A DNA stretch of 64,000 bases from the NCBI GenBank assembly GCA_026770705.1, contig JANJGN010000041.1, forward strand, positions 3,162,001 to 3,226,000. The letters are read 5' to 3'. Under the pieces are notes generated by a model. The model searched no databases. It had not been told where the DNA came from and worked only from the letters and a program-made list of their open reading frames with translations. Shown here one piece after another: positions 5,845-46,089 of this stretch (its first letter is position 1; every line of letters starts with the position of its first letter). The position numbers were made by a program, and so were the translations under genes. The stretch is from Isurus oxyrinchus. Taxonomy: Eukaryota.

Positions 5845-6749
5845 TTAATGTTGTCGCGATTGTAATTCTTTCCCGACGAAAGTGTGGCCTCTCCAAATGT
5901 ATTACCCACTATATGATCGCAATGGCCACGGCGGATCTTCTGGTTGTTTGTGCAGAAGCCATTCTGAAGAATACGCTGGATATTTACTTCCCTGTTTTAT
6001 TCTTGACCAACAGCACCGTGTGCCAACTAAAGTTGACACTGTTTAATGTAGTCACAACAGCCTCAGTCTGGTTCACAGTGGTGTTCACCTTCGATCGTTT
6101 TGTTGTCATATGTTGTAAGCAGCTGCGAAAACAATATTGCACGGAGACAACAGCCGTAGCTGTCATATCAATGGTGAGTGTGTTGAGCTGTTTGATAAAC
6201 ATTCCCTGGTATTTTGCGTATGAACCAGCATATATAATGGACAATGTAAATCGTGGTTGTGTCCCGAAACAGACATTTTTCAGTTCTGCCAAATGGCTTG
6301 TATTTGACTTGTTCGCTCTTACCTTGACCCCATGTGCTCCATTCTTTCTAATTGTGTTGCTAAATGTTTTGACGGCTAGACATATTTTGGCAGCCAGTAA
6401 AGTTCGCAGGGGTCTCCACGGTTGCAGCAATGGAGAATATCACAAGGATTCTGTAATTGAAAGCCGAAGAAAGTCCATTATTTTGCTCTTCAGTATAACT
6501 GGCAGCTTTATATTGCTCTGGACAGCTCCACTTATATATCTCATCTCTCTGCGTGCAACAATCACATCGGATACTGACACAAATGAGCTTAAGTCAGTTG
6601 GATTCATGCTTGGGGTCCTCAGTTCCTGCACAAATACATTCATTTATGTGCTGACGCAGGCTAGGTTTAGGGAGGAAATAAAGAACGGAATGCAATACCT
6701 TGCAAAACTGTGCATAATGCTATGCAAAATAGAGCTGAAGACCCATTGA
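5845..6749 (+). CDS. GPR139/GPR142-like orphan class A GPCR, copy 1, terminal coding exon (TM1 end to C-terminus); first coding exon not found in window
   Basis: Open frame within ORF 5805..6749 with 7TM motifs: TM1 N (VNVVAIVIL), TM2 AxADL, TM3 Cys and SVWFTVVFTFDRF, TM4 NIPWY, ECL2 Cys, TM5 PF-LI-LLN, TM6 F-LLW-xP, TM7 TNTFIY, helix 8 RFREE. Polypyrimidine acceptor ctctctctatacctcccctacAG ends at 5844 (phase 1). The ORF's nominal start is GTG inside the intron, so an upstream exon is required. Confidence 0.9.
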
Positions 6750-6929
6750 CCTTTACAGGAGGACATAGAGGTTTTGCCCTGAATGTACTCATGTTAGAAA
6801 AATGCTTGTAACAACATTTAATATCCTACTAAAATGCTTTTTTCTAATATAATTTCAATTTAACTCAATTTCACAGGATACTGTAATCAATTGTGAAATG
6901 TATGTCATGAAAACAAGAATTTAACAATT

Positions 6930-6935
6930 AATAAA
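6930..6935 (+). terminator. Candidate polyadenylation signal for GPCR copy 1
   Basis: AATAAA about 180 nt after the TGA. The sequence is AT-rich, so chance occurrence is possible. Confidence 0.35.
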
Positions 6936-8359
6936 GAAAGTACTGAAGAGCCCGTGTTAACGTTGCAGAGTTTGAAAGGATGAATTGTGATGTCAGATTC
7001 TGACACCCTTGCATACATTGGGACAGTTGTTCTTATCAACAAGAGAACACCCAAAACGTCACCAGCTGGATCACAATAACTCGACAAATGTAACATATAC
7101 AAACATGAGAAATTTCCTACAACATCTATTCTGGGCCAAATAGTACATAGGGGGATTTTTCAGTGCAAGTTTCATTAAGTCTGGCCCCCTCCAAATTTCG
7201 AACAGTTGTGCAATGAGCTAATTCTCAGAGTTCCATATACCTCAGATGATTAAAACAAGGAAGGCCTGGTCATCGCTTATTTTGTGAGAGGACAGAAATT
7301 GGCACAATTGATCACTCATTCCCACGATCCATATGGCTGTGAAACGGCTCAATATATTTTATTCAAAACTGTTAAGTCCTATTTACCTTCGTTTCCTTTG
7401 AAAGCGCAAATAGCTCATACTTGTTATTTCACAATTAATGCTGCTACCATGTTCCCACATGCTCATTCACATCACTCACTGTTTCATGTCATCTGGTCCT
7501 TTCACACACACAGCCACCAAAATGCTGTTATCATAATTCTGGAAAGTTTTATTATGTTTAACTTGATATCCACTCATCAATATAGTGAGTGACGCTTCAA
7601 CCAGGTATCTGCACGAATTCCCAGCCAAGAAACGTCCGGGCACACATGGTCCTAGCATCAAATTCCTTATTTGTATACTTTACACATATTGAATGTGAAA
7701 AAATGTAATGTAATTCTTCTTGTCACATTATCTATTCATGTAGATAACTTAAATGCCGTTCGTAGAATGCAACCACAGACGAGCAACAGCACAGAAGCAG
7801 ATCATTTGGCCAGTCCTTCACTTATTGTCTTTTCGAAGGAAGGTCTGGCCGGCAGCCACTCCTCCAGCTTCTTCCTGTTATCTGGGTCATTCACTTTTCT
7901 CAGATGTTAATACACAATCCGCTTGACGATTTCTAATTAACCACCCTAATTACCCGGTAAAATGATTGGCCAGAACAACTGCCAATTAAAGCGGTATTAA
8001 ATAGAAAACTACAACTGCTGTCCTTGAATAAATTAACATTAAAAACAAGAATGATTTGGTCATGGCATGAGAGGCATAGCAGACATGAAATGCAACTACT
8101 GCCAATCTTTAATTGCTCTGACAGCAAAGCATACGTGATCCATCTTTTCTAGCAGCTACAGTGTTTCTTATATCTTCGCACTAGCTGCTTAGGCCCTGAA
8201 TTACTAAATGCCCACACCGCCGGTCAGCTAGCACTCCTTTTTAAATGTTTGTTCTGGCGTTTCGGCACGTGCACTTTCTAAATAGACACCCCGCCTGCTC
8301 AGCTTCCAGTCCTTTTAGTTCCTGAGAGAACCTGACTTCCTCAGGGTAGTGCCCGAGGC

Positions 8360-9290
8360 TCAAAGATGTTTAGCTCCCTCATCAATGCCCTTCTCTCCAT
8401 CTTCAGGTCGGAAAAAGGGGATGTTCGCTGACGATTGCGAAATGTTCAATACAGTTCGGGACTCCTAAGTTAAGGAGGTTGTCCATGGCCCAATGCAGCA
8501 TGTTCAGGCTTTGGCTGGCAATTAGCAAAGGACATTCACACCATACAGGTACCAGGCAATGATTATCTCCAAAAGAGAAAATCAATCCATCGCCCATTAA
8601 CATTCAATGGCGTTACCATCACCGAAAGTCACACTATCAGCATTGCTACGGTTATCATTGACCAGAAACACAACTGGGTTGGCCATATAAACACAACGTT
8701 TACAACTGCAGTTCAGATGCAAGAAATCCTGCGGTGTGTAATACAGCTCCTTGCTACATAATTCCTTTCCACCAAATACAAGGCCCAAGGTAGAATTGTG
8801 ATGGTATACACTCCATTTGCATGGATGTGGTCAGCTCCAATAGCAGTCAAGAAGCATGAACAATCAGCAGCTGATTGACACCACATCAATAAACCTTGAC
8901 TCCATCCACCACTGACGAAAAATTGCAGCATCGTGTACTACCTGCAAGGTGCACAGCAAGGGTTCTCTTAGTCACCTTAGACATTACCGTCTAAACCGAT
9001 GACCGCAACCATCTAGAAGGATGATGGGTAGCGGGTGCATGGGAACACAACAATCTGGAAGTTCCACACCAAGCTACTCACCAGCCTGTTTTGAAAAGAT
9101 AATCCTGTTTCTTAATTGTCGTTGCTTCAAATTCCAGGAACTCCATCCCTAAAAGCACAATGGGTTTAGGGTTACCGGAGGGACTGCTACATTCAAGAAG
9201 GTAGCTTAGCACCATCTTCTAAAGGGTACTTAAGTCTGGGTAATAAATGCTGTGCGATCTATTGACGCCAAGACCCCCTCAATGACTAAT
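8360..9290 (+). mobile_element. Family A LINE 3' portion, shared with the right arm
   Basis: RT remnant (gggatgttcgctgacgattgc, MFADD) and the family 3' tail (gggtaataaatgctg). Mirrored at about 31150-32100 with the same flanks. Confidence 0.75.
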
Positions 9291-9299
9291 AATAAATTA

Positions 9300-9715
9300 T
9301 CATTGTTTCTGTAGCTGCACAGCTCCGGCGCTTCCCATTTCTCCAGTCAGATAGCTCTGTTCTACTAAAGTCAAATCACTGTTGCAGCTAATACTTCCTG
9401 CTTCATTTAAAACTATGCTCTAGCTATTTAGCTCCCACACTTTTATAGGTCTTTGCTCTCGGGGAAGAGCACCGTCTACTTTCCAATCTGTGTTTTGATT
9501 ATCTAGCTCCCACTATTTTCTAACTCTGTTATGGGGGAACAGCCTCTTTCTTAACGGCTTTGACTATCTATCTTTCGCTCTTTTTAAATCTCTCCTGTGG
9601 CAGCTCAGCTCTCGCTCTTTTTACATTTCTGCATTGGCGCCTCAACTCCCCCTCTAATTAAAATATCATCTGTTCCTGTTCAGCTCCCCGCTCTCTCTAA
9701 ATCCCAGCTCTCAAT
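9300..9715 (+). repeat. Degenerate tandem repeat, unit about (c)agctcccgctctttttaaat; mirrored at about 30770-31040
   Basis: About six diverged units near 9430, 9505, 9572, 9607, 9645 and 9682. Reverse-complement units aaaagagcgggagct near 30910, 30945 and 31020. Confidence 0.6.
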
Positions 9716-9899
9716 GTTCAGCTGCAGCACTAAAAGAATAATTACACCTGCCCTGACTGCCAAGATCTAGCCGGGAATTTGAGATTGTTGATGTTAGTTA
9801 AGAATGATCACTGGTTTGTAACACCATGCCTGACAACAAGAACATGCTTGAACAAAATTAATTGCATTTTGATATCACAGCAGAGAAGAGTAATGAAGA

Positions 9900-10450
9900 G
9901 AATAAATAGTGAAGATGATTTTGAGATATTAATTGACAACTTATAACAGATAAGGCTGCTTAAGAAAATTTAGGCTCATTAAAGAGGACAAAAGCACGGG
10001 TTGTGGAAAGGAAGGGGTCGCTTTCCAATTACATCCAATTCAGTAATGCACAGAAAACGCACACTGTTTGTAGACGTTTTGTTTCAGTCTGGATGATGGT
10101 GGCCAGTGGTGTTCCCAACGAATCCGGGTTTGTGATATTTTTGCTCGATATAAACCAGTTGGATCTTGGAATACAGCAAAACGTCTGAAAATGTGTTAGT
10201 TATGCAAAAATGTTGTGAGTTAACCAGTGACGATGATACGAATCTGCTGCATTAAGACATGGAGGGACGAGCAAAATAGGCAGGAGATTAGCAGATGCAA
10301 TTTAATATATTGCAATGTAAAATAATTCAGCTTGGCAGAAGGTGTCGTGTGGGGAAATAGAGATGGAATGTCACTGTCCTAAAGTATGTGATAGAATGGA
10401 GGGGCCAAGGTGCATGTGCTTCGTTGTTAGAGTGTGGTAGACAGAGCTGT
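9900..10450 (+). mobile_element. CR1-type RT fragment, very decayed
   Basis: aagaaaatttaggctcat, gtggccagtggtgttccc (SGVPQ motif) and cagatgcaatttaat (QMQFN). Confidence 0.55.
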
Positions 10451-10649
10451 GCCTCGCATATGGAAAAGTGTGGCGAGCTCGCCTGGCAATGCACATTGAG
10501 GGCGGAATACGGACTTCGCTGGATGACCTGTGAATGCGGTGACCTTTCAGTAATGATTATGTTTGAAGGCGTCTGTTTAAGTGATACAAACGAGGTGCCC
10601 TATTCGGATTTAGGATTCAATGGCTAGCGCGATCAGAGACAGAGACAAT

Positions 10650-12330
10650 GGGGGAAATATTGCTCGGGAGCGAAGAAAAGACAGAAAGAAAACAAGAGAA
10701 TAAGAAAACCTTGAAATGTTCTCTGGAAAAGAAGAAGGCTTTTAAACGTTTCTCGGCAAATCTGCGAATTTTTGAATTAATGCACTCCAGCGAATGCACT
10801 CACCAAGTCTCAGGAAGAGGACGTTAGTGTGAAACGTACACAGGCTGATGAAACAGTGAATTCTTCCGCCGCATTTCCAACTGAAGAAGTAATCTATGGT
10901 CCATCAAGATGGCCAGATTTATTCAACATGTAGATGATAGACATTACAGCGAGGAGACGGCCTGTGAAAATAATCGGCAGTCCCTCTGTCTTTCCAAACG
11001 ATAATGTGAACGAAACCTTTCAGAATACTTAACCTCATTGGAAATGTCAAATGGAGAAAAAGTTGAATCAAATGACCTGTTGCACATGAAAAATCCCTGA
11101 TGCAGCTTTTTTTATTCCGCAGCAAATGTTACGGCTCAGAATCCACACGCAAATTATGCAAGGAATGCGGCAAAGCCTGCAAACATCTCAATGAAAGATT
11201 GCAATGTCATCGAATTATCCAAGGAGCGTATTCAAAACCCAACAAAATGGATTGAAAGAAAGTGAATGTTCCCAGAAATGAAGGTACTAGATGAGTAAGC
11301 ACATATAAATAAACAATGTGAAGAAAAAATGACTAGCAACGTTGACAGGCATGTTAGAAGCCGTTCAGCTCTTGTTGATCATAACTCAGATTTTGTCGAA
11401 CACATGCAAGACTTTATGAACACAACAATGAATCATTTCTTGGATTATTCAACATTAGAGCTAAATTCGAGCCAATTTGCAAGGATATGTCACATGCATC
11501 AATAACTAATACACTGCTGACCATTTTAATGGCTCTCTTATTCAAAATGAGCTAATTTCGATGTTGGCGTTGCAGGTGATGACCATAACCGTTATTGTAG
11601 AGTTGGAGGCTGCAATACCCCTTGCGCCTATTCCTTTCAATGCCCCTGGTCTGAGTGATAAAGATCAGATATACCTTGTGCTTCGTTAGGTTGATCTGAC
11701 TTCTGAAGATTTGAATTGAAGGGAGGATTTAATTCATTTTCTGCTGATTCAGGGCAACATTTGGCAAGGCCTGTCTGATACTCTCAATGATGCGCCAGAT
11801 GGGCTTGGCCTTAGCATCACTGACTGTAAGAGGCAGAGACACAACAATCGGATAAACATAAATGATCAGAAACGAGTCGTACAGGCCTGCCCTCTTCATC
11901 ACAACCGTCGAGGCGTTTAACTCCATGTGGCTGCCACAACTTATGTCTGGCATTGCAAGATATGGCAAAGTGTAGTTCTAAAACCATAACACTGCTTTCG
12001 AGTTGTGCAGCGAATTTAAACAATTTCAGTTTGAAATAATTGATGGCATTTATTGAGAGCAGATCCTTGCTGTATAAAGTAATTGTCAGACAGTTGGTGG
12101 GCTGTTGAGTGTAGAGTGGGAATGCAAGATGTTACCAAACATCTGATATTAGGAAGGCATTGATTACAGTTGCTGAAGAATGTGACAACTCAAACGTTAA
12201 AATAGAGACTTAGTCCACGAACAATGACGAAACCGAAGCTTTTGAATTTGGCTTTGCACTGGCTGAGTGGCACGACAGCATATTCGCCAGAAGCAGTGAC
12301 CCAGAATATTCGATCCTTCGAAATGCAGTT
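10650..12330 (+). mobile_element. hAT-superfamily DNA transposase fossil (ZMYM1-like/DUF4371 type)
   Basis: Reading across frameshifts gives MSNGEKVE (11044), LYEHNNESFLGL (about 11413), IQNELISMLA (11540), LGLSITDCKRQ (about 11805), PCGCHNLCLALQDMAKCSSK (11923; the hAT CxxH motif) and FEFGFALAEWHD (about 12240), in the expected order. No ORF in the track captures it. Confidence 0.8.
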
Positions 12331-12399
12331 TCGAGCGGCTTTAAGCAAAAGTGAAAAGCAGGCTGTGTAGCACTCGTAATAAGGTAAGGTATTATTTTC

Positions 12400-13239: not shown

Positions 13240-15010
13240 TTTTCTGCAAACATTCTTTACCTTCTGGAAAGCCTCCAACGAATTGCGCTCACTGCGTAAG
13301 CACGTTCCACAATTATCCACACCACCAAAACTGAGAGGGCCCAACACATCAGTAGAAAATGTAAAGCTGACGCATTGGCAAAAATCTTCCTCTAGAGGTA
13401 CCGAGTGGATGAGCCATCTTGGCCTCCTCGGTACGTTCCCAATATCACAGATGACAGTCTTCAGCAAAGTGCTCTCATTCTCCGTGATATCAGCAAGCCA
13501 CTGCACCTCTGGATACTGCGAGACAATGGGCACCAAGAATATTCCAGCAATTGTACTGAAGGCTTCTGAACCCGAAAGTATCCTGTGCCATACCAATGCT
13601 GCTCCAGTACAGATTCAACACAGGCATCTACCCAAATATGTGAAAAGTCGCCCAGGTATGTGATTCACAAAAACGCTGCACAAACCCAGCCTGTTCGTTA
13701 ACTGTGGCATCAGCCTACATCTGATGAAAAGGTAAGTAATGGAAGGGTTCAGAAAGCGGCATCTGATCACAAGTAATCTGCTCACTGAGGCTCAGTTTGG
13801 ATTGCAAAAGATTCATTGAGTTGTGAATAGCATCACAGCCATGGTCCAAACATGGAGACAAGAGCTGAACTTCAGATGTGACGTGACAGTGCCCACACTT
13901 AATATCAAGGCAGCATTTGATAATTTGTGGCATCAAGGCACCCTCAAATAACTGGAGTCATTGCAAATAAAAGGGAAAACTCTCCATCGGATGGAATCAT
14001 ATCTGGTAAAAATGAGTATGGTGGTTGTAGTTGCAGATAGTTCATCTCAGTTCAAGGATGTCACTGAAGGAGATGCTCTGCATTGTGCCCAGGTTTAAGC
14101 ACCCTTAGGTGCATCACATATCACCTTTCATCCACCATATGTTCAGAATTGGGGATGTTCGATAACGATTGCTCAATGGACAGAATATTTGCAACTCCTC
14201 AAATACTGAGCCGTTTATGCCTAGATACAGGAAAGTCTGTAGGTTATCCAGGCTTTGGGAGAGAAGTGCCAATTAACTTTAACACCACATAAGTACTAAT
14301 TTATATCAAAAAATAATCTAACAATCATCCCTTGGCATTCAATGATATTATGATTTCTGAAACCAACGCTATCATCATCCTATGAACAACCGTTGAACAG
14401 TAACTGAACTGGCCCAACCATATTAAGACTGTGGCTACACGAGCTGGCCAGAGGCTAGGCAATCTGCGGCGAGTAACTTACGACCTGTCTCCTCAATGCT
14501 TGGCCACCATCTACAATGCAAAAGTCAGGAGTTCCCGCATCAATGCTGCTCCAACGGCCCTCAGGAACCTCAAAGCAATCCACAAACAAAGCTTCATTGG
14601 CTGCCCTTCAATAAGTGTACGCTCTCTCCAGCACGGACAGACAGTGATTGCTGTTTGCACCAGCTACAATATCTTCCTCAGGAGCACATCACTCTACCTT
14701 AGACAGTAGATCCCAAAAGCAGAATGGCTGCCATCTAGAAGGACAACAACAGCAGGCAGATGGGAGCACAAGCACTTGCAAGTTTTTCTCCCCGCTATTG
14801 ACCATCCTGGCTTGGGGTTATCACCGTTCCTTCATTGCTGCTCGGTAAGGCCCTGGAGCTTACTTCCAAAATGAACTGCGGGTTTATCTGCACCACATGC
14901 ACAGCAATGGCTCAAGAATGTAGCTCACCATAACCTTCTCAAGGGCAATTAGGATGGACAGTAAATGCCAGCCAACCAGCGATGCCAATATCCTGTAAAT
15001 CAATAATAAA
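13240..15010 (+). mobile_element. Family A LINE, 5'-truncated, RT to 3' tail
   Basis: MGTKNIPAIVLK, IKAAF (about 13900), LGMFDNDC, ATRAGQRLGNLRRV..LATIYNAKVRS, and the 3' tail aagggcaattaggatggacagtaaatgcc..aataataaa. Confidence 0.8.
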
Positions 15011-20820: not shown

Positions 20821-21439
20821 CGGTTGTGTTGCATTGCCAAGAGCTTATTGACAGAGGTGCTGAACAGAGCTTGTTGAATAAAACTGGGAATCTGGGAAAA
20901 GCTGCGGATCTCAAGTAGCAGCAGAATAATAGGAAATTCGCTCTTTAAGCTCATGCCGCGGTATATTCCACATCCCACCCTCCTGCCCGCCGCGGGATTA
21001 ACACGGACAAGATGACGAGTGCAAGTCGCAGTCCAAGGGCAGCACCAAATATACCACATAGGGGAACGTGGTGAATCTTCAACACACCGTTACCTGCATT
21101 TTAAGGAACAGAAGAAAACTGCAAAAATGCTAACATCTCCCACAAACAGTGCCCCGACATGAATTCCCGTCGCATCCAGTAGTTAATGATAGTGCCCATA
21201 AGAAAACTTTAATGAGGAGGAGGCTTCAAATGTATCCCATCGGCCATTTTGGGAGCCAAATGACATCAGTACAATCGACAAGGTTGTAACATTTGCAGCT
21301 CGTGTGTGTCAGGATTGTAAGTGCTTCATCTTAATGTCCCAGACACCACAGACGCCACACTGAATTTAAAAACAAAATATTGCTCATAATGGAAATCTGA
21401 AATAAACACAGGTTAGGTTGGAAAACCTCAACAGGTTTG

Positions 21440-29230: not shown

Positions 29231-31149
29231 TAGCTACAGTTTGATATTAATTGCAACGTGAGGTATATGCAGGGCCAAGGTATTACAGCTTGTGGTTGCA
29301 TACAATGCTACCGCCGTTGTTCTTCCCCAGGCGGTATGAATGCCCATTTTCCAGTTGTTAGAACTATTCCATTTAACCCGCTCATAGAGCCGCATTATAT
29401 GATGGTGCATATCTGAATGTGAGCATGGGAGTTAATCACCAATACAATTGTGAGGTGCTCACTCTTTCTTCTGCTTTCATGTTTACATGCATCTGAAACA
29501 GATAGATTGGTGAGGAGGAAGTAACATAGATTTGTCTTCCGTGTTGCTGGTTCCTTCACCAGCAGCTACTGAGCCAGTCCAGCAGCAATGTATTTTATGA
29601 GTCAGACAGTTTGGAAAGCAATAGTGTGACTGAGCCACCCTTGATGAAGCGCATTGAAGTTCCTCAAGCAGATTGTGGTTTGTGACCTTGCCAGCCAATA
29701 AGATTCTTCCAATTGGTTCTCAACGTGGAAGAGTTCTGATTCTTCAATTAAACAGAGAATGTTTCAGGGTCTTATCATTTTCTCATTTTTCCTTCTGCCT
29801 TTTCTCTGCACCCGAGCTATATTACCTCTGTTTGTTTTTCCCTCTCTCTGCACGAGCTATCCATTGCACTCTAAATACAAATAGGGCCGCTCATTTACGT
29901 CAATTATACAGACGCCTCCAATCTCACCCAGAAGGGAAAGGTGGTTCGCTTTCAAATGTCAGAACAGGGGACCCCACATCCCGCCCCTAAAGCGGAGTGT
30001 AAGGCGCGTTCGTCACAATTATCTATACCCAAGGCACGTCTGTGTCCACCACAGTCAAACATCGAAGCATTTGCAAACTGGTCACTCTATTCATCCAAAT
30101 TCTTGAGAACAGTGACATTCAACATCTATTACCTTTCAATACCTCTTCTACCAAAGTGTATTATTTTACCCAGCAATGCATTAAATTGCAACTACTAATT
30201 CACTGCCAATTTTGCTCGTTTCTCCAAGTCCGATTGCAGTGGATTCGTACCATCCTGAGTGGTTGACCGCCACCTTACCATGTGTGTATCTGTAACATAT
30301 TTTGAGACGTGGTCCTGTGTTCAAAAATCCTGCTGGTTTATAGAGAGCAAAACGAACACCCGCCAACAGAGATCCTTGGGGAAATCTAGTAGCTACCATC
30401 ATCCAGGCTGAAACAAAACGATTACCAGCAGTTTCTGTTTTCAGTAACCAAGTTACTGAATTGTATACAATTGGATAGAGACTCCCTGCTTCTGCCCTCT
30501 TTCATGAGCCTAAATTTTCTTATCAGCCTTATCTGTGCTAAATTGTCAATTAATACCTCAACACCCATTCAGCCAACATGTCCTGTGTTATCTTCCTTAA
30601 TTTTCCCTGCTCTGACATCAGAATGCAAACTAAGTTTTTCAAGTATGTTCTTAGTTTAAAGCATGTCTTTTACAAATCCTTGATCATTCTCAATTAAAGT
30701 TAACCGTCTCAAATTCCTGGCGGAAGCTTGGCTGTAAGGTCAGATTTGGTTATATTTTTAGTACTGCAGCTGAACAGTGAGAGCAGTGAATTAGAGAGAG
30801 ACGGGGGCTGAGCACCAAAAGGTAGTATTTTTAAAACGAGGGGACAGTTGAGATGTCAGAGCAGGAACTTAAATTGAGAGGGAGCTGAGCTTCCAGAGGG
30901 GAGATTTAAAAAGAGCGGGAGCTGAGCTGCCCGAAGAGATAGTTAGAGCGGGAGCTAGATAATCAAATCACAGATTGAGAATTACCAGGGGCTGTTCACC
31001 CAAAGCAGAGAGTTAATAAAAGAGCGGGAGCTAAATAGCGATTTCAGTGTTTTATAAGAAGCTGGAACATTGATTTGACTATGGCAGAGCATGGTTCTCA
31101 GAATGGAGAATTGGAATGTGCAGTAGTTGTGCAGCCACTTAAACAATTA

Positions 31150-32100
31150 TTTTTGTATATTCAAATACGGGATTTTGGCTTCAATCGCTGGCACAGCATT
31201 TCTTGCAAATCGTAGTTACCCTTATCAAGATGGTGGTGAGCTTCCTTCTTGAACTGCATCAGTCCCTGGTGTGCCTGTACACCCACACCTGATAGGGATG
31301 GAATCCCAGGATTTTGACCCAACGATATTGAAGGAACAGCGATATGTTTTCAAATCTGGGCTGTAAGTAGCTTGGGGGGATCTTGGAGGTTTTGGTGATC
31401 CCGGTAACCTGCTGCCCCTTATCGTACTGGGTGAGAGAGTCGTGAGCTTGGAAAGTCCTACCAAAAGGCCTTGTTGAATTGCTGAAGTGCCTCTTGTAGA
31501 TGGCACACAGCTGCCATTGTTTTCCAGCGTTGGAGGGACTCAAAGTGTGTCGATGTGGTGTCAATCAAGCGGCTGCTTTGTCCTTGAAGCTGTCAAGCTT
31601 CTTTTGTTTTGTTGGAGCTGCACGCATCTAGGCAAGTGGAGAGTATAGCATCAAATTCTTTCCTTTGCCTTGAAGATGGTGGATAGAATTTGGGGAGCCA
31701 GGAAGGGTGTTACTCTCCGCAGGATTCTGAACCTCTGAAGTGGGTTTGTAGACATCGTGTTTATATGCCTAATCCAGATAAGTTTACAGTCAAGGATAAC
31801 AGCTGATAGTGGGAAATTCATTAATGCCATGGAACGTCAACAGGCATTGGTTGTATTATCTCTTTTGGAAATGGTCATTGCCTGGCACTTGTGTGGTGTG
31901 AATGTTGTTTGCCAATTGTCAGCCAAAGCCGGTACATTGTCCAGAACATGCTGCACTTGGCCATGGGGTGCGACAATATCTCAGTAGTGGGGGATGGTGT
32001 TGAACATTGTGCATCATCATCGAACATCCCAATTCTTGACTTTGCATTGAGTGAAGATCCTTGATGAGTGAGCTAAACATCGTTGAGACTCGGTCACTAC
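31150..32100 (-). mobile_element. Family A LINE 3' portion, paralogous to 8360-9290
   Basis: gatggtggtgagcttccttcttgaactgc, ccaggattttgacccaacg and catcatcgaacatccc, at the same position relative to the GPCR stop as in the left arm. Confidence 0.8.
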
Positions 32101-33559
32101 CCTGAAGAACTCAGGTTCCCTCAGGATCTAAAAGGACTGGCAGCTCAGCAGCCAGGGTGTATATTTAGAAAGTTCAGGTGCCAAAACTTCAGAAGAACTA
32201 TTTAGAAAAGAGTGTTAGGCTATCTGTCGTTGTGGGTATTTAGTTATTCAGGTCCAAAGCATCCTGTGCGAATATTTCACGTTCACTGTAGATGCTCGAA
32301 AAGGCAGCTCACGTTCACTTTGCTGTAAGAGCAATTAGTGGTTGGCAGTAAATGTTTTTCTTGCCAGCTATGTCCCTCATGCCATGACCGAATCATTTTT
32401 TCAAATGTTCATTTATTCCTTGACGGCGCGTATAGGTTTGTAGCCATCGCCACTGTACATTGGCCATTTTAATTGGCAGTACTTCTGGCGAACCATTTTC
32501 CCAGATGTTTAGACAGCTCAACTAGGAAAGGTCAAGGCGATTTTGTGTTTGTATGTGAGAAAGACGAATGACCCAGACAGTATGCACAAGGAGGAGGAGT
32601 GGATGACGGCTGCAGCTTCAACTCAGGGAGCCAATGAGGAAAGGGTGAGTCAAATTATCTGCTCTATGCTGTAATCTGTGTATGGTTGCATTCTACGAAC
32701 TTTGTTTAAGTAAATTAAAGGTGAATAAATGATAAGAATATGTGAAGAGAAGAATTATATTATATATTTTCACATTCAAAATGCATAGGAATACAAAGGA
32801 AGAAGATTATGGTAGGGCCATGAACGAGTAGAGGTTTCATAGCTGAGAATTGTTGCGGATATCTGGTTGAAGCTTTACTCGTTATTTTGATGAGTGGATG
32901 TCAAGTTAATATTTTTTAGACGCCACAGCATCTGTGAGTTGTGATGACAACCATTTGGTGGCTGTGTGTGTGAAAGGACCAGAGAACATGAAACAGAGTG
33001 TTGTGAATGAGCATGTGGGGAGTAGGCAGCCCCTATGTTCGTGAGTAATTAAGTATGAGTTTTGTAAGCTTTCAAATGAATCGTAGGGAAATTCAGAGAT
33101 ATGTAACCGTCTCTAAGTCCTATAGATAGTGAGAATGAGTAATAAAAGTTACCACATGATCAATTGCGCCCATGCCCGGTATTGAACAATGCATGTCATG
33201 GCCAGGAGCTCCTCCTTTTTTAATCATGGAACTTTGAATAGCCACTAATTGTGCAACAGTCTGATATCTGGTTGGAGCCAGTTTTCATGCAACCGGTTCT
33301 GAAAACCGCCCTTTATTTTATTCAGTCCTGAACAGAAAATGAAAGGTATTTGTGACGTTTTTCTATGTCACGGTTTTTTGAGTTATTGTCATCTAGCTGG
33401 TGATGTTTGGGGTGTTCTCTTGTTGATCAGAGCAGCTGTATAATGATCTCTATGGATTCAGAACCTGGAATCATATTTCCTCCTTTCAAACTCTGCAATA
33501 ATAACACGGGCTGTTCAGTAAAGAAATTTTCTTATTACCATCACGCCTCAAGCCCAGCA

Positions 33560-33565
33560 TTTATT
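33560..33565 (-). terminator. Candidate polyadenylation signal for GPCR copy 2
   Basis: AATAAA on the minus strand about 170 nt after the stop, a similar distance to copy 1. Confidence 0.3.
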
Positions 33566-33735
33566 AGAGTATACTGCGAAAAGAAGTTCAATTTGAGACT
33601 ATACTATAAAGGAGTATTTTTAGCAGGGATATAATTTTATCCAGAGTGGCCATACATTACTTAAGGTATTTTGGTAATTTGAGACCCTTCAGGTACAATG
33701 TTTATGTAGTCCTGTAAACGTCAATAGATTTTCAG

Positions 33736-34623
33736 TTATAATTTGACTAATTTTACGCACAGTTTCACAAGGTACTGCATTCCGTTCCTCAGCTCCTCCC
33801 TAAATTTAGCCTGTGTCAGCACATAAATGAATGTATTTGTGCAGCAACTGAGGACCCCAAGCATGACTCCAACTAACTCAAGCTGATTAGTGCCAGAATA
33901 TGAAATTATTGTTGTACGCACAGAGACAACATATGCAACTGGAGTTGCCCAGAGCATTATAAAGCTGCCGGTTATACTGAAGAGTAAAATTATCGACTTT
34001 CTTCGGCTTGCAATCTCTGGATCTTTGTGATGCTCTCCATTGCAGCAACCGCGGAGACCCCTGTGAACTTTACTGGCGGCCAAAATACATCTCACCGTCA
34101 AAATATTTAGCAACAAAATTAAAATGAATGGAACCAATGTGGTCAAAGTAAGTGTAAACAAATCAAACGTAGCCCATTCAGCATTAGTGTAAAATGCCTG
34201 TTTTAGGAAGCAACCACGAGGTATATTGTCAATTATATATGCAGGTTCATAAGCAAAACACCAGGGAATGTTTATCAAACAACTCAAAACATTCACTTGA
34301 TATGACAGCTACGCCTGTTGTCTCTGTGCAATATTTTTTTCTCCGTTCTTCACAACATATCGCCACAAAACGATCGAAGGTGAACGCCAATGTTAACCAG
34401 ACAGAGGCTGATGTGACTACATAAATCAATGTCTCAGTTAGATGGCACACCGTGCTCATGGTCAAGAATGAATCCGGGAAATAAATACCCAGCATCTCCT
34501 TCAGTATGACTTCAGTACAGATAAACAGGAGATCAACCGCTGCCATTGCAATCATGGAGAGTGTAATGCATTTGGAGAGACCACACTTTCTTCTGGAAAG
34601 GATCACAATCGCAACAACATTAG
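33736..34623 (-). pseudogene. GPCR copy 2 terminal exon with a single 2-bp frameshift (recent pseudogene, null allele or assembly error)
   Basis: ORFs 34247..34747 and 33736..34296 are the two halves of a paralog about 71% identical to copy 1 (my by-eye count, about 87 differences in about 296 aa). Copy 1 reads tca ATG GTG agt and copy 2 reads tca A-- GTG aat at 34297/34296. Acceptor ccctcacttacAG at 34625-34624. The repaired gene would encode 319 aa. Confidence 0.85.
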
Positions 34624-37600
34624 CTGTAAGTGAGGGATAGAGAGAGAAGAAGCTAGACGTCATAGCGGAACAAGGCACTTTCTCTTCCAGTTGCAGCAAA
34701 GCCTCATGCATTTGACGCAAACATGCATGGCCTGCTTCCCGAGACAACCATGTACTAAATGTGGATTGGACTTAGTAAATGTGGACAGGGAATTGTTTAT
34801 TCCTCTTTTAATAGGAGCATCATCAATTAAACTGGGCAACTACTGTGCAATAACGATTGAGTTTTTTGAGGGAGAATCTGATATGGACAATTTGATGGTA
34901 CAAAAAAGGCTGGGCATGTTGAATTTCAAATAGTAAATGGGAGGTGTAAAGAGACAATGCATGTGTGAAGGTGCAATATCAATTTGGAAATGAAGTCGCA
35001 AAACAGAATCTGGGCTATGTAGAGGTATACTCTGGTAGAGGTTGTGGTGCAATAAGTGTTGTGCGGTTGACAGATGCAATAAATTTTTGAAAGGGTTACT
35101 GTGACACAGGACTGACAGATCGAAGGTAGAGTGTGGCCCAGCAGCATGGGCATACTCCGAAGGCTTGGAAGTATAAAGATAGAATAGGATTTGCACAGGA
35201 CATGTTAGATTGGTCACTGAGCTACAAAGTAACGCTAGCATAGACGAGGCCGAATAAAGGTTTACCCAGGAGTCCTCACAGATGCGGTCCAATGACAATC
35301 AAAATATGCTGACATTTTTATGCAAATGAGCCAGATGTTTTATGGCAGACTCAGAAATCTAAGATTAATATGCAGGCTGGGCACTTTGAAGGTATAGGTC
35401 AGGTGAATGCATCGCTAATTCATTGCCGATAAAAGTGAAGCAACATTGCTTTTCCGACTGGGTATGGTTGGTGCTGATCATGGGGGCAGTTCAATGGCCG
35501 ATTGGGAATGGTGACATTGCTGTCAGATTAAGGGTGGAATATTTGTTGGCCAACGGGAAGGCAGAGTAGCTATTGCCTGGGACAACGCTTCTTTCTGAAA
35601 AGATTAGTTTTAAAGTGCAGTGAATGGATTTTGCAAACTGCAGGGTCAATAGGAATCACAGCGATGCAAGACACATTGTTGTTAAAGTGTAGAGCGCGAG
35701 CAATTCCAAGATGTGATTCCGGTCAGGTTCAAATTAACTATCTTTTCTGAGGCGACAGGAGAGCGTTCCGATTGATTGATCGGCTGTAGATTATATCTCT
35801 TTGTTTCCGAAAGGTCACTTGCATTTCATTCACACTTTCCGTGAGAAATGAATTGAAATGTGAAGCTAAACACTGACCGTTGAAGGACACAAAGTGCAAA
35901 ATGTCCAGGTTGACATGGATCGTGATGGGCAGATCGATTTGAGTTGGTAGATTATTTTAGGTCCAATATATCTTTAGAACAGGAAAACAGCGAAGTGTTG
36001 ATTACCCGATGAAAAAAAGCTAAATCCTAACATTTGCAAGGATAAATTAACGTACTTTGCAGCTATTTTCAATTTGGATTGGTTTGGATCATAACATCCT
36101 TGAATTTTAGCAATATTTGGTAAAATGCATATTTCTTTTTCAAAATGCAAGAACATTTTTAGTGAATTAGAGATCTAATTCAATGTTTGTGCTATTATAT
36201 AGATTACATTGAAACATTTCTACTAATTACTGATTAACTTCAAAGATCTTTATAAATCAAGCGAAACTGACGTGAGCCTCAGATGATCATGGCTGCATCA
36301 TTGTTTCTGCTGTTATCTTAATAAAACTCTGTTGTCTTTTGAAGATAATAGTTTCACAGTGAATCTCAATGAACCAATTCGCTTTGCCATACATTTACTA
36401 ACTTAATGCACACGTTTACTTAAATTTTATCTGCATTTCAAAGCCAGGTAAATAACTCTAGTTTTAAATAATATCCAAATTAAGTAATTGGTTCGCATCT
36501 GAATCTGTATTTGTGGTTCTGATGCCTATGTTGCAGGACAGGATTTCTTGGCTCTTGCAAGGGTACAGAATAGCGTTTCGGCTGAAATCTCCGATCACTC
36601 AGGATTCCCAGATTAAGGAATAGAAAATGTGCATTCTCAGAATGAAGGGATGAGTAAAAAGAGATTTTATTGAAGTACCAAGTACTTTCAAGGCTTTGCA
36701 ACCTGGAGCACTCTGAAAGTGTACTTTTCAGAAACTTGAATTTAGGAAAACATCAATGCAGTGGAGCAATGTCTATAAACGTGGTGGTGAATTAACATTT
36801 TGGATCATATTAATTCCCAAAGATGTTGATTAATTATTTACAGGAACTTTGAAAAAAGTAAGTCGTGTTAGTCGGATAAAGATAAACAGAATGTTTGCAT
36901 TTCTGCATCAGCTTGTGAATTGGCAAGCTCTGACCACACAAAAAAAGCTATCTTTATAAGGTGACATCCCCAGCCCAGTTGTCAACTGCTGCCTCGGATT
37001 CACAATTTTCTAACTGGAATGAAAGCGACAGACATTGATGTACTGATGGGAACTGTCACAGATAATTACAAACAGCCTTGAACACGCCAGGTAATGTATA
37101 TAAGCTGATGTTTGATTTTCTGTTGACCGTGTAGGCTGCACTGGAAAGCGGGGGAAACATTAGAAAAGCAAAGCCATTTTGATTCAATTACAGCCCAAAA
37201 GAAGCGTCAAAAATTAAGGTTTACCTTCAATTATCCTATACCTATTATTCCGTGAGTAAATCTGATATTAATAGCCTTACAATGTCATTAATATTCACCC
37301 AGAGGCATAAACATCAATTCGCTATTTGGAATTAAACAAAGATGGTTGACCAAATTATCAGTACCTGAAGCTGTACTGGCCGGAACTGTAAATAAGGAAA
37401 CAGTTAAAAGTAGGAAAAATACAGTACTGTTCACAGTTATAGATTGAAGCAGTCAATGTTTGAACAAATTAATAATCAAAACTAATATCCAATAAATTAT
37501 CAGCATGTTTCCAGAATTGTCCTCCTAATTAATCATTGAGATGCTCCAAGAAAAAACCACACTATTTTCTAATGAAGTTAACATTGAATTATCCAAACAG

Positions 37601-39529
37601 TATTATATCTGTCAAATTAAGTGTACAGCTATCAAGTATATTATCCATATAAGCTCCTGGTAAATTAAATAGAGAATTGAACATTTATATATGCTGCGGA
37701 ATTACTCTCTGCAAATGCAGTCTACATCTCACCTGTTATTGATTTGCTGTTTGTGAAAAGAAACATAGAGCAAGTGCAGTGTCCTTTGATTAATGTGCCT
37801 CTTGGTGTTGTTCCCGCAAACACCCCAGTCTGATAAACCACAGAGCAATGGAGTTTCTGCCACTTTCATAAATCCATATCAGTTCAAGAGCGATGTTTGC
37901 TTCGCAGTGTAAGCACAAAATAACAATTTTCTTTGGCATTGTTTGTATGCAAAGCAGATGCTACAGCTCCAATTCATTCCAGGGACGTGGTGACTACTCT
38001 GGCAAATGCAACACAGAGCGAGATCCACTGAACATTGTTTTTGGTTATGACACATTGCAGCAGACTCGGTAGCGACAGTTACAGTAGAAAGGCAGGACAA
38101 GTTCACCCGCTGCATGTTTAAAACGCTAAAAATGATTTAGGTTCATAAAGCAACATTACATTAAGTAGGCATCGGATTTGATTTTATGTTTTTTCAGAAA
38201 TGTGAGATTGGTAAATGCAAAATAGGTGATCGGAACCCTATTGTCCCACGCAACATCCCTTAGACGGCCTCCCCCTCCTCAACTCATCAAATCCCGGGGA
38301 AGAGGCAATGAGTGATGTAAAATGGTGTCCGCGTCCAATTGGCAGTGAACGCCTAGTCCTCATGTGGCAGAGTGTAATGCCATGTACAGAGAATTGGTAT
38401 GGCTACAAGCTCAATACAACCTACTTTCAGCAAATTTTTCGAAAAATGCTTTTCATTGAAAACTCAGGCAAGAAACAAAAAAGTGAGAAAAATGCATGCC
38501 GATGCTGTCATCTTCCCCAGCACAACCTGCTGCTGCATTCGATCATGCTCCCGGAGGCAGGAGTTCCCTTCCGCACATTTGCCGTCTCACAGTAGCTGCT
38601 CAAAAACGCTTACTTTCTCTCGAATGAGCCATGGGAAATGCAATGCTCCAAACAGGAAAACATACCATTGGTTCGCTCACAAGCTCAATAACCTGTTAAT
38701 TTGTAACTTGCGAAAAGTGGGCCCGCTCGTTCTCTATCTGCAGTTGTGGAGAATAACGAACCCGGCTTCCTTACACCTGATGCACGTAATTGATATTCGT
38801 GCAGATTCAACGTTTTTGAGGGGTGGGGGAGGGGGGTGATGGGTGATGCGGGGGAGCACGTTTCTGGGTGGGGTGGGTGCGAGGTGGTGATGGGCAGTGT
38901 GGGGGTGGGGGTTCGGGGTGCGATTTGGGGAAGAAATGTCCAGTCAATCGTTTTGGCTACAGATTTAGACATTCAGGAGCGAAATGAAGATATAAATCCT
39001 CAGCTTGGAACCAGAGTACTGCAAAAGGATTGGAATTAAAACATGCCCATTGTTGTTAGCCTTAGTTTAGTGCTGCAAAGTAAACATGCAGGGACGTCCT
39101 TTCATTATCAAATGACAAAAACATTCATAGATTCGGGATTATGCAGCACTTTATTTTCGTGGGATACATTGGCAAGATGAGCATTTTTTTTTCCGAGATC
39201 ACATATTCTTCTTGTTGGTGTCCATGTGATGCGGGTGCACACACAATGTTACTAGCGATGCATTTACAGGTGTTTGATCCACAGGCAATCAGGGAACGCT
39301 GATGTATCTCCAAGTCAGGATGGGGTGTGACATCGATAGGTTTTTGCATTAATATTGTTCCAATGCCACTTCTGTCCTTGCCCTTCCAGACTTTCGATGA
39401 GAACCAGATAACTACTCGGGGAGCATAGGTGTTCCAAAATCGGACCATTTATGTCTCAGTTAGCAATCTGTGTGCTAAGATAGATGTTTCATTACTTACG
39501 TCCTGGCGTCAGTACTGGTGAACAAAATT

Positions 39530-39845
39530 GTCAGCCAATGCGCCATTGCCATAGAGAAGTAGTTCTGCACTATAGGATGTAGTAACTTTCAAAACAGATG
39601 TCAGTTCGTTTCACAGGGAAAACGTCAAAGATTCCTTGCCTCTATTTCAATCACCAACCTTGTCGTAGCCCCGTAGGTCCTGACTACCATTTAAACTTCT
39701 GCTAAACCCCACAAAACGGATGATCTGGTCATTGTCAACTTGCTGCTTGTGGAATATTCCCGACCGTTTGCATCACTTCAGTGACAACACTTCATATAAA
39801 TCTATTAAGCTGGTCGATAATTGAGGTTGTAGAAATGCATGTATT
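39530..39845 (+). mobile_element. Old SINE with Deu-domain-like core (SacSINE1/AmnSINE-like, from memory)
   Basis: cacaaaacggatgatctggtcattgtcaacttgctgcttgtgg and cagtgacaacacttca resemble the DeuSINE central core. Confidence 0.5.
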
Positions 39846-40382
39846 TCAATAGACAAGTGACTAAGACATCGGAATATCTTCTGCACACACAGCAATCTGT
39901 TTCAGCCAGACTACGAGATATCCTCTCTGCATACAGATTTGTAAAAATATCGCTGTCGTAGTGAGTATCTGATCTGACAGGGATCCCGGTATTGAAATAT
40001 TGGAAACTGGATGATAACCATTAGCAACGGCTGCAAATATTTCAAGCATAATTTTGCAGAATGCGAATTAGCCTCTGCACAGATATTCACAGATTATGTT
40101 TTCACCAAGTTGAAACTCGGTTTGCAATTGATTATGATAATTATTGCAGAGCCTACACGGTTACATGACATTGCATAAAGCAACAATAAGGTGTCAGCAG
40201 TGGAGAAAATGGAATGAATGATATAGCAACAGCAAGAAATCTATTAACGTTATGGTTAAACGTACATCCCTTCTATGATGATTTCCCAAAATTAAAGAAA
40301 TTATTTCATGTTATCGGAACCGGCGTTTGAGAAGAAGATCAACATCCATTTATATGTGCAATGATTGTATTTAGGCTCTTAC

Positions 40383-40452
40383 CAGGAACACCAATAGCCG
40401 CAAGAATAGGATAGAAAATGGCTTCTATCTGGCGAAGTATCTTTAATCCCAT
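40383..40452 (-). CDS. First coding exon of GPCR copy 2 (MGLKILRQIEAIFYPILAAIGVP, phase-1 donor)
   Basis: ATG at 40452-40450; 70 nt = 23 codons + 1 nt, ending CCTG|GTAAGA (canonical donor). Joins the phase-1 acceptor at 34624 to give ...IGVPANVVAIVIL, a complete TM1. The intron is 5759 nt. Confidence 0.85.
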
Positions 40453-40709
40453 CTTTATTAGGAGGCGTCTTTCCTGCAGAGATTGATGCACAAGGTGAAA
40501 TGAACGTTTGACCTGAAACGTAGAGATCATCTTCTTCTTTAAATTCAGCTCAGGAAATTAAAAGAAACACGTTTAAATCACAGGAGATTTGGAAGTAGAT
40601 GCCACGTTAATTAAACTAGAGCGTCAGGTTAAAACTAGAGCGACAGGATTCCCAGCATGGAACAGAGAAAAGCTGTTACCTTTACCTAACATGAAGCCCT
40701 TTATTTAAC

Positions 40710-41005: not shown

Positions 41006-42249
41006 TTATATTGTTAGTCCAAGGTCATGTTAATAAACGTACATTGGAAAACGAGAGCTTTGAGAATGGGTTTGTAAATGGCTCGTATCTGATGAAGTAC
41101 AACAACTGATATCCACTGCGAGAGGAGCTAACTCCTGTTGAAAGCGATACACGGAGCCTGTTGGAAAACATGAAATATGGCAGTCAGAGAAGCTGTTATA
41201 TAGGCAGCAGATAAATCCCCATAAGGGCATTCATGTCCCCTAAAGAAAACAATTAGTTTCAGTCAATGAACAAACAGGTTACGTCAGTCACTCTCCTTTT
41301 GAAAGGAACTGTTTCAAAATGAAACGTCGAACAATGGAATGATGTGCGAGGTGAATAACACTGAAGGGGCTATTTTAGCGAGCAACTGGTAGATCCCACA
41401 GTGGAAAGTCCTGTCGGGAAAGGATTGACACACACAGCGATGTCAGGAATCAAATTGATACTAATTTAGATCAAAGTGATTCGAGGGAACTCAATCGACC
41501 TGAACTGCCCTGAGAGGTGATGGGGGAAATTTCAGATGTTCACCACTGCCATGTGTTTCCGGTCACATTCTATGTTCCAACAGGGCATATGTGTGATGTA
41601 TTTCTTTGAAATTTAAGCTTCCAGAAGGAACTCATACGCTCCCCAGATCTTTCCGTGGATTTTTCTGGCACTGACACTTCCGTCAGTGACTTGACCTACA
41701 TATTCTGTCGTTGCCCATAAATTTGCACCATTCCGGCTGGAAATTATAGATGCAACCGTTGGACCTGGGAGGTTGGCGTTGTTGGTGCCTTGATGTGCAA
41801 TAGTGCAGAGTGATGCTTGAACTGAATGAAAAAAAAATGTTTTTGAGAAATTAATGGTATATATAGAGTACATCGCTGGGAAGGCAATCCAATCTGAACT
41901 TAAAACTCTTGGCCCTCAAATCTATTCTGGTCAGAATCATTAGCAGATGTATTCACTGATTATAATCAACCCAAATCGACGGGGCCTGCAGCTTTGGTGT
42001 GGGCTGCATTTCAAACAAACACCAAAACCAGAATAGTTAAGGTCAGTAGGTTATTTCGCCACTTGAGCCTGTTCTGCAACTCGGAAAATTCATGTTTTAT
42101 CTGATCCTGGTCTCATCTACACTCTCCTGCCTGGTCTCCCCAAACCAACATCTTCCGCCAAACCCTTCCGCCACCTCCCTCACACCACGCTCATACAGCC
42201 TCATGAACCTAGTCTCCCTTATTGGTCAATAAACAATCCAGCTCATGGA

Positions 42250-44259: not shown

Positions 44260-44342
44260 AAGACAGACAGACAGACACATAGATGCACAGACAGACAAAC
44301 ATTCCAATGGATAGACTGATTAGAAGAGAAAGTTTCATGCGG

Positions 44343-44374
<32 letters not shown>

Positions 44375-44492
44375 ACGAGCAACAAATTGAGCTTGCGAGT
44401 GAAAAAGCAAGGGAATGTGAGACCGAGATGGATGGATAGATAGATATATATGGAGTTGGATAGATAGTTAGATGGATGGATAGATAGATTGA
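44260..44492. repeat. Compound microsatellite (GACA)n/(GA)n/(GGAT)n/(GATA)n
   Basis: Directly visible tracts at 44260-44300, 44343-44372, 44427-44450 and 44459-44490. Confidence 0.85.
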
Positions 44493-45269
44493 AAGATAAG
44501 AACATGAAGGGCTGAAATATAAGTCCTTCTTGCAACAAATAACCCCTGTGGATCATTGACAAAGACGACCTTGAAGCAAAAAAGGTGATTGTGATTTAAA
44601 AAGAAACACAAAAACGCAATGAATGTATACGTACGAATATTGAACACGAATAAAATTGGGAATTTCGCCTGACAAATCCCCCTTAATATCAAATCAGATA
44701 TGACGTCCAGGAATTCGGTCTCTGACATTCGAATCTAGTAGCAAATAAAACAATTTGAAGGATAGCAATTTCCTCATGACCTTTATCATTTATGTTCATC
44801 AGTAAAGCGATTGCTATTTTTTTCTACAAGAAGAGGCCGACGTCTGGGAACACTGTTTAACTCAACTGATCACTCCCCAAAATATGTGCAGTATCTCCAA
44901 GGGACAATTGTGGAATGCGTCAGGTTGGAAACATGGGCTGGCCAAATGGAGTTGGGGGTTGGTGGGTGGGGGTGCTGGGTTTTGCGGGTGATGCTGCTGG
45001 GAGGGGTCCTTGTACAATTGGTGTGAAGGGAAAGGGAATTCTACCAGTGGATTGCCCAATGCAAGTTTGCTTATTCTGAGTACTATGATGTCTAATCAGT
45101 GAGAGGAACCTTCATGTTGTTAATGCCAATTCTTCAACAGACAATGATACCATTTGCGACCAGCCCCACGATTCTTCATTTTCCTTGCTGTCAAGCCCCT
45201 CCAAACGCTGAAAACCTGAAGTAGCAGTGGACAATGCTGCACACGAACTCTGTTTTAGTTATTTTAATC

Positions 45270-46089
45270 ATATCCGAGTACATTCTTCAAATGCATTCGC
45301 AACATATTCGGTAACATAATATACATGCAGATCATTGTGCATAACTGAGGAGCTCCAGAAGGATGTCAATAACTTGGCTAAATTGTCTGCATGCGTTAAA
45401 CTGGACAACACATCCAACATCTGCTACCACAGAGAATAAACCATAAATGCTGACAATAACTAGCTGCATTTTATTGAGAGGACAAAAAATTAAATGTTGC
45501 ATTCCCTTCGATTTTCCATCTCCCTGAAAGCCCGGAGTCTCCTGCAGCTTCTGCTGGTCAGTAACCTGTGCCTGACAGTGAAACTACTGACCAGCAGAAG
45601 AAGGACAAGTGTTCTCTCCCTGGTTAGAATGTGATTGAGGAACTTGATTATTCTCCAGGACAGAGAATGCGGGTCATTTATTGCCTCATCACTGAGCGGG
45701 TTTTTATTGGTAGCCAATACTCATTTGACAACAATAAATATCAGGAAAGGTTCCTTGAACAGCCCAAAAAATTTGAGTATTACCTGAAGCTTAGCCGCTG
45801 TTTGTCCAGCACAATACTTACATTTCAGATTTTGCCAACAAAAGGCTACAAAGCTTTGAATGGTGCGAGTGACTGTGAACCAGTCAGAAAAGTCAGTGGC
45901 TGATAGCTTTGGCATTACACACGGGGTTGGAGTTCAAGAAACGAAACTCTTTTTAGAAAACAATCAGAAAGTGTCGAAATGTTAGGCTGAGGAAAACAGG
46001 TTTGCCACTGTCATAGTCACCACTTGCTGAGTGTCACATTTGGAGAGACCACACTTCCTGCAAATGTGTCCGAATCATCACTATGTTAG
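45270..46089 (-). pseudogene. GPCR copy 3, heavily decayed terminal exon of the same family
   Basis: Acceptor ccccttacgctcAG|CTAAC (A-N) at 46090. Then RKCGLSKC and MTVANL; ORF 45721..45915 SDWFTVTRTIQSFVAFCWQNLKCKYC (matches SVWFTVVFTFDRFVVICCKQLRKQYC); ORF 45490..45717 LLLLVSSFTVRHRLLTSRSCRRLR..EMENRRE (TM5/ICL3); TM7 remnant ctcctcagtt..tgcacaa..atctgcatgtat near 45320-45355. Many indels and stops. Confidence 0.8.

Follow-up and report, generated by a model that had tools for sequence, protein, structure and literature searches.

Introduction

GPR139 and GPR142, class A G protein-coupled receptors (GPCRs) activated by L-Trp and L-Phe (PDB 7vug, 9m42), are the nearest well-described systems to the genes considered here. 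Human GPR139 has two exons, its identity with the zebrafish protein is 70%, and its agonist site comprises E108, F109, H187, W241, R244 and N271 (PMC7318219). The FMRFamide/myosuppressin receptors have been placed as the protostome sister group of GPR139/142, for which an aromatic type of ancestral ligand was proposed (PMC8557429), and neighbouring receptors have been named either GPR210A, GPR210B and a third subtype (Rinne 2019, PMC6504862) or 'NMOGPR' and 'Orphan 139-like' (Furlong and Seong 2017, Table 1, PMC5207463). The present analysis concerns a cluster of related receptor genes, hereafter copies 1 to 4 (Table 1), in a 64,000-nucleotide stretch of the Isurus oxyrinchus genome (assembly GCA_026770705.1, contig JANJGN010000041.1, positions 3,162,001 to 3,226,000; the window). 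Sequence comparisons assign these genes to a multi-copy elasmobranch family with dozens or more members per genome, and about one in amphibians.

Size and Spread of the Family

A search with the copy 1 protein against protein clusters formed at 90% identity recovered 1903 clusters at E ≤ 0.001 among 3130 candidates, a result that bears out the suggestion, made in a first-pass annotation of this DNA, of a lineage-expanded family. When the best 120 of the 1903 were tallied by species, all 120 of the matches listed proved to be from sharks or rays, with at least 48 from the horn shark Heterodontus francisci and at least 42 from the sevengill Heptranchias perlo, these species counts being lower bounds that include some partial or poorly modelled rows. 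With that many clusters in each of two single species, the family does not share the single-copy state of GPR139 and GPR142. A profile constructed from 76 sequences matched, at E ≤ 1e-30, 137 clusters formed at the 50% identity level. Ten mid-scoring representatives comprised eight clusters with an elasmobranch name, one unnamed, and one without an organism whose accession prefix we take to be that of elephant shark; ten low-scoring representatives comprised a salamander, a coelacanth, two teleosts, a crocodile, two amphioxus sequences and three without an organism. Catshark members with consecutive accessions lie on one contig, indicating clustered paralogs.

As had been anticipated, the automatic label 'probable GPR139' is found on family members in public annotations. 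Other automatic names are carried by P0002, P0013, P0168 and P0174 (GPR15-like, cephalotocin receptor-like, capa receptor-like and vasopressin V2-like), and because members bear such unrelated names, counts by name would miss some of them.

Relationship to GPR139 and GPR142

Copy 1 matched the Pfam family 7tm_1 at 77.8 bits (cut-off 30.5; E 1.2e-21), which identifies it as a class A receptor, and across 114 family members N1.50, D2.50, C3.25, D-R-F, P5.50, W6.48, N7.49 and Y7.53 were each conserved at 96–100%. When the family profile was compared with solved structures, human GPR139 was the best match (E 4.9e-20, 75 bits; next 50), as it was for the amphibian, coelacanth and amphioxus relatives. 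Together with the automatic names, this result would suit the simplest explanation of the locus, namely that its genes are the shark GPR139/GPR142 orthologs with a few local duplicates and sense L-Trp and L-Phe. However, copy 1 alone scored only 33.6 bits against human GPR139 (E 2.7e-7), level with GPR52/GPR21, a figure to be set against the 70% human-zebrafish identity of true orthologs. Copies 1 and 2 retain just one of the six agonist-pocket residues, the Trp, while horn-shark paralogs retain between one and four, and closer non-mammalian relatives exist in the form of the two clades (A and B) described below. On these grounds, and in view of the multi-copy state, orthology was rejected and is considered very improbable: the window genes are best classed as relatives of GPR139 rather than orthologs. 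With so few of those pocket residues kept, copies 1 and 2 give no support to a sharing of the aromatic amino-acid sensing that the first-pass annotation noted for mammalian GPR139 and GPR142, and the outcome that this annotation had named as fatal to its own proposal, one-to-one orthology with known receptors, did not materialise.

The phase-1 intron before the Asn of the first transmembrane helix (TM1) is evident in copy 2, and in 16 of 23 hand-picked models from the conserved clades an unrelated leader gives way to homology at this same intron point. Among the Atlas neighbours of the family, PF10324 (srw) was assigned to 17–74% of members; a Pfam scan of copy 1 and two shark homologs detected no PF10324 match, and an anchovy relative matched it at 28.3 bits. 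The profile match to GPR139 and the Atlas neighbours place the family in the wider GPR139/142-GPR210-FMRFamide-receptor group.

Nearest Relatives

Two sets of conserved vertebrate proteins were recognised as close relatives. Clade A contains coelacanth, sturgeon, bowfin, teleost, amphibian and reptile proteins plus one shark row for each of three species; of its 145 matches 120 were listed, and none of these carries the name of a bird or mammal. Represented by P0226 / P0274, it appears as a conserved GPR139-related orphan in which Ser or Cys replaces W6.48. The search for clade B, the amphibian/sturgeon gene, gave 25 matches, of which 20 were amphibian rows, each from a different species, and one was a sturgeon; the clade includes Xenopus tropicalis XP_031757816.1, Pleurodeles XP_069092602.1 and Acipenser RXM35349.1. 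The amphibian rows were 66–74% identical to the query and approximately 32–33% identical to shark members; this search was word-based and returned only four shark proteins, and absence from other groups does not follow from it. All 20 clade B amphibian proteins keep three of the six GPR139 agonist-site residues (F3.33, W6.48 and N7.39), with Lys in place of Arg at 6.51. A separate peculiarity of clade B (P0214 / P0402), alongside its near-invariant pocket, is that all 20 amphibian rows have Ser at position 1.50 and Asn at position 2.50, sites that rank among the best conserved in class A receptors.

The shark family and clade B were joined with a Shimodaira-Hasegawa-like approximate likelihood ratio (SH-aLRT) support of 99 in one tree, and 97/99 under a mixture model for which the bootstrap was not fully settled. 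An approximately unbiased (AU) test rejected both a grouping of clade A with clade B and one of the shark family with clade A (p-AU 0.001, 0.0014). Clade A, which has its own single shark rows, was consequently rejected as the sister group, a position for which clade B is the supported candidate. Support for the shark family as one clade apart from clade B was weaker (88/79 in the mixture-model tree). The maximum-likelihood tree advocated in the first-pass annotation has thus been realised in part, placing the family with clade B from alignments without canonical GPR139 and GPR142, and with amphioxus or an invertebrate-like protein on long branches as roots.

Structure and History of the Copies in the Window

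A six-frame scan of the window detected the motif RKCGLSKC three times, corresponding to the three paralogs previously recognised, each of which matched a hidden Markov model (HMM) of the family (E 5e-114 to 5e-21). The motif is indeed common to all three, but it is not special to them, being a family-wide feature in which the first R is usually G. The described states of their second exons, namely open, carrying one frameshift, and ruined, were confirmed for copies 1, 2 and 3 respectively. When the window was reversed or complemented as a control, the best family HMM match had E = 1.2; since the copies gave values of 5e-114 to 2.4e-6, their matches are not attributable to chance.

Table 1. 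Positions of receptor-related features in the window.
Feature	Position	Strand	Description
Copy 1, intron part homologous to copy 2 intron	2831..5844	+	69-71% identity; ends in phase-1 acceptor AG (5843-5844), preceded by pyrimidine tract
Copy 1, exon 2	5845..6749	+	Open frame from mid-TM1 to stop (second half of TM1 to TM7, plus C-tail); family HMM E 5e-114
Copy 2, downstream flank	29740..33735	-	69% identity to copy 1 flank 6750-10736; limit of inverted duplication
Copy 2, exon 2	33736..34623	-	Open except for one 2-bp deletion adjoining 34297 (start of TM4); stop codon 33738-33736; family HMM E 2e-78 and 3e-47
Copy 2, intron	34624..40382	-	5759 bp, phase 1; acceptor AG 34625-34624
Copy 2, exon 1 coding part	40383..40452	-	ATG, 23 codons and 1 base, then phase-1 GT donor; HMM E 1.3e-13
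Decayed duplicate exon 1	41043..41154	-	About 650 bp upstream of copy 2 exon 1; lacks ATG, GT kept in phase 1; nhmmer E 0.0018
Copy 4 (fourth remnant)	44594..44779	-	Decayed piece (TM1-TM3) of a further family member; HMM E 2.4e-6
Copy 3, ruined exon 2	45261..46089	-	Different sub-lineage; acceptor kept; HMM E 4.6e-21

The live gene of the window is probably copy 1, whose intactness is established for exon 2 and not for the whole gene. Among the matches listed, its best are proteins of basking shark and white shark (81–82% identity), and the sequencing runs listed for it include none of RNA. No exon 1 was found for it in positions 1-5844 by tblastn, protein HMM, blastn or nhmmer searches. The homology between its intron and that of copy 2 stops at 2831, some 1 kb short of the expected exon 1 site, and to the left of this point 1703 of 2831 bases match repeats elsewhere in the window. 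As the basking-shark protein, the closest full-length homolog (tree support 99/89), has an exon 1, that of copy 1 probably lies to the left of the window, with loss as the alternative.

Copy 2 is a complete two-exon gene carrying a single 2-bp deletion. Its intron contains a 1.75-kb stretch (35324-37074) without a counterpart in copy 1. The reads of four of the five listed sequencing runs yielded no copy 2 exon joint and left the frameshift uncovered; those that aligned consisted of three short pieces (42–81 bases, depth 2.7–7.4) that derive from other paralogs and lie close to where exon 2 begins, one of them extending into the intron, the remaining matches being repeats. Immediately upstream of the ATG, positions 40453-40520 on the minus strand can be read in frame to give a sequence resembling the leaders in Heptranchias paralog gene models, a likeness that suggests a conserved 5' untranslated stretch; the same interval holds a pyrimidine-CAG that could act as the acceptor for an upstream non-coding exon.

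Copies 1 and 2 constitute an inverted duplication (2831-10736 versus 39397-29740) with 69–71% identity outside the exon and 82% nucleotide identity within exon 2. Over 294 codons the nonsynonymous (dN) and synonymous (dS) divergences were 0.16 and 0.37, giving a dN/dS of 0.44 (bootstrap 0.30–0.64), which was 0.33 before the frameshift and 0.53 after it. Both copies have therefore been subject to purifying selection since an old inverted duplication, and because constraint acted on each for most of that time, the lesion in copy 2 is probably recent, or else an assembly error.

Copies 3 and 4 are probably old pseudogenes. In copy 3 a frameshift occurs within about ten codons and is followed by several stops, the motif RKCGLSKC is out of frame with the acceptor, and homology extends to about 45261. 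Copies 1 and 2 ranked only 220 and 249 among all the proteins compared with it, and although some of the top total scores were inflated by gene models with internal repeats, its best single match among family proteins reached 94 bits versus 43 for copy 1. The duplication, inversion and pseudogenisation proposed for the cluster are all represented, by the inverted pair and by the broken copies 2, 3 and 4. The notion of three decay stages of one duplication had to be abandoned, since the affinities of copy 3 lie, by a wide margin, with family members other than copies 1 and 2, and it comes from another sub-lineage.

Divergence of the Predicted Ligand Pocket

The distribution of variability was assessed at 29 pocket and 114 intracellular-half positions, with helix positions mapped by motif anchors and rows retained if at least 90% of positions were filled (horn shark 45/48, sevengill 40/42, amphibian 20/22, clade A 57/59). 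Mean pairwise identities for pocket, other extracellular and intracellular positions were 0.41, 0.54 and 0.80 respectively among the horn-shark paralogs, and 0.49, 0.59 and 0.85 among those of the sevengill. The corresponding values for orthologs were 0.98, 0.82 and 0.78 in amphibians, and 0.78, 0.61 and 0.69 in clade A. The near-invariance of the predicted pocket in amphibians serves as an internal check that these 29 positions matter.

All 45 horn-shark paralogs had different pocket strings, and the variable sites agreed between horn shark and sevengill (Spearman 0.86). At the six positions defined by GPR139 mutagenesis the horn shark deploys 9, 8, 12, 1, 10 and 14 kinds of residue, and amphibians one each. 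A similar picture emerged within the window, where copies 1 and 2 were identical at 14 of 28 pocket positions versus 89 of 108 intracellular positions (Fisher p 0.0009); copy 1 and its two closest homologs in other sharks were identical at 22–23 of the 28. The aligned sequences thus firmly indicate a variable outer half and a conserved inner half, with the predicted pocket the most variable part, a pattern that fits a ligand-diversified repertoire.

Candidate Functions

We give an about even chance to the family serving as a repertoire of external chemical sensors, in which different copies would respond to different ligands through a shared G protein. The ancestor would have resembled GPR139 and sensed aromatic amino acids or peptides with an aromatic end, an inference prompted by the retention in the amphibian gene of F3.33, W6.48, N7.39 and, at 6.51, a basic residue. 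Many duplications in cartilaginous fishes would then have freed the pocket to diversify toward new ligands, with a water-borne peptide or amino-acid derivative of its own predicted for each copy, and the conserved inner face would couple all of them to one common transducer, possibly Gq and phospholipase C by analogy with GPR139. A tentative extension, falling somewhat short of an even chance when taken as one joint claim, is that sharks and rays possess an extra chemosensory family, possibly their largest, which would have arisen independently of OR, TAAR, V1R, V2R, T1R and T2R from one GPR139-like gene, still kept by amphibians and sturgeon as one conserved copy, and would form a vertebrate parallel of the srw expansion.

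External chemosensation is favoured for three reasons. The nematode srw receptors, related to the FMRFamide/myosuppressin receptors, have undergone birth-and-death evolution, and environmental peptides were suggested speculatively as what they detect (PMC2576165); a snail chemosensory organ has a 'probable GPR139' among its highly expressed genes (PMC10638732); and the catshark is reported to have only 5–8 genes each of OR, ORA and TAAR (PMC6368271).

Several observations tell against external sensing. The margin by which the pocket exceeds other extracellular sites in variability is moderate (p 0.022 in horn shark, 0.10 in sevengill, 0.051 for all 114 members, and 0.15 between copies 1 and 2), and because of this the variability may reflect a relaxation of constraint across the whole outer half. 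The 29 pocket positions are what we take to be generic class A positions, mapped by alignment with helix bulges ignored rather than taken from a structure, and the activation motifs are atypical, P6.50 being mostly T and P7.50 being T in 96%. An immune or nociceptive repertoire, moreover, would give the same sequence pattern. No GPCR is reported among the catshark's 50 most abundant brain-plus-olfactory-specific genes (PMC11979771), a weak objection because known odorant receptors would be missed likewise.

It is improbable that the expansion is mostly drift, in which repeat-rich DNA would have kept duplicating a neuro-endocrine GPR139-like receptor whose outer half varies through relaxed constraint and not through selection for new ligands. 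This would account for the broken state of three of the four exon-2 copies in the window amid repeat-rich flanks, for the borderline contrast between pocket and other extracellular sites, and for a dN/dS that is higher after the frameshift than before it. Against it, dN/dS stays below 1 across an old duplication (dS 0.37), the copy 1 pocket is kept across shark species but not versus its paralog, the sites that vary most in sharks show little or no variation in amphibians, and the inner face remains 80–85% identical.

In rodents the MRGPR and FPR families have expanded as sensors of peptides, and a comparable role is conceivable here. Under this alternative, which we regard as less likely than external sensing but likelier than drift, the shark receptors would be internal danger sensors on sensory neurons, mast-like cells or leukocytes, MRGPR- or formyl-peptide-receptor-like in their response to microbial, parasite or tissue-damage peptides. 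Such a repertoire fits the sequence pattern equally well, and cartilaginous fishes are reported to be without MAS1 and its relatives, leaving the role vacant (PMC8455134); the expanded invertebrate relatives, on the other hand, are tied to chemosensation.

Repeats and Other Features of the Window

Between copies 1 and 2 lies a direct repeat of 1.4 kb with 78% identity (19416-20843 and 24505-25941), probably consisting of mobile-element remnants. A reverse-transcriptase fragment at 16919-17239 on the minus strand (Pfam RVT_1, E 4.4e-11) is probably a decayed long interspersed nuclear element, and repeats related to it occur at about 8300-9300, 14100-15000, 31150-32030 and 47540-48360. An open stretch of 154 codons at 57315-57776 on the minus strand had no match in a Pfam scan; it resembles the tail of a long terminal repeat retrotransposon integrase.

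Significance

The full-text literature searched, which did not extend to subscription papers and further supplements, contains no account of a shark GPR139-like expansion. Among 24 supplements of the whale-shark paper (PMC8455134) the sole trace was one GPR142 orthogroup label, and the family is not mentioned in the zebra-shark paper supplement, in one short supplement (4,750 characters, uninformative) of the nurse-shark spleen single-nucleus paper, or in the available portions of PMC10620051 (plus one supplement), PMC11979771 and PMC10529500 (one supplement only). The repertoire is large and apparently undescribed, though visible in annotations under the GPR139 label.

Cartilaginous fishes are described as poor in GPCRs by the whale-shark paper (PMC8455134), and their odorant receptors are likewise said to be few (PMC6368271), a shortage that sits oddly with the chemical sensitivity of these animals. 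At least 42–48 distinct members per species would revise that account, whether the receptors serve smell, taste or defence. The amphibian sister gene marks the starting state for pocket divergence in sharks, and because its expression and ligand are accessible in Xenopus or axolotl, it brings the question within reach of experiment.

Comparison with Known Systems

With GPR139 and GPR142 the shark family has in common the two-exon layout seen in copy 2 and the residues N1.50, D2.50, DR, W6.48, N5.58, N7.49 and Y7.53. It differs from these single-copy, highly conserved receptors in being multi-copy with pseudogenes, in having C3.25 in 96% of members, in the loss of P6.50 from most, in its changed pocket residues, and in the remoteness of the similarity.

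GPR210A/B and NMOGPR are described as coelacanth, gar and teleost neighbours of GPR139/142 without a human ortholog, a description that fits clades A and B; compared by description only, the bony-vertebrate relatives may be these named orphans. No shark expansion figures in the accounts of them, and the word 'shark' is absent from the available portion of PMC6504862. The amphibian/sturgeon gene differs from the shark family in having one row per species and a pocket that is 98% identical.

The nematode srw and mollusc FMRFamide-receptor-like expansions belong to the same wider receptor group and likewise form birth-and-death clusters, from which the shark expansion is independent. As with OR, TAAR, V1R/ORA, V2R, T2R, FPR and MRGPR, the family combines clustered paralogs, pseudogenes, a variable outer half and a conserved inner half; unlike them, it has a separate ancestry and a coding intron in TM1.

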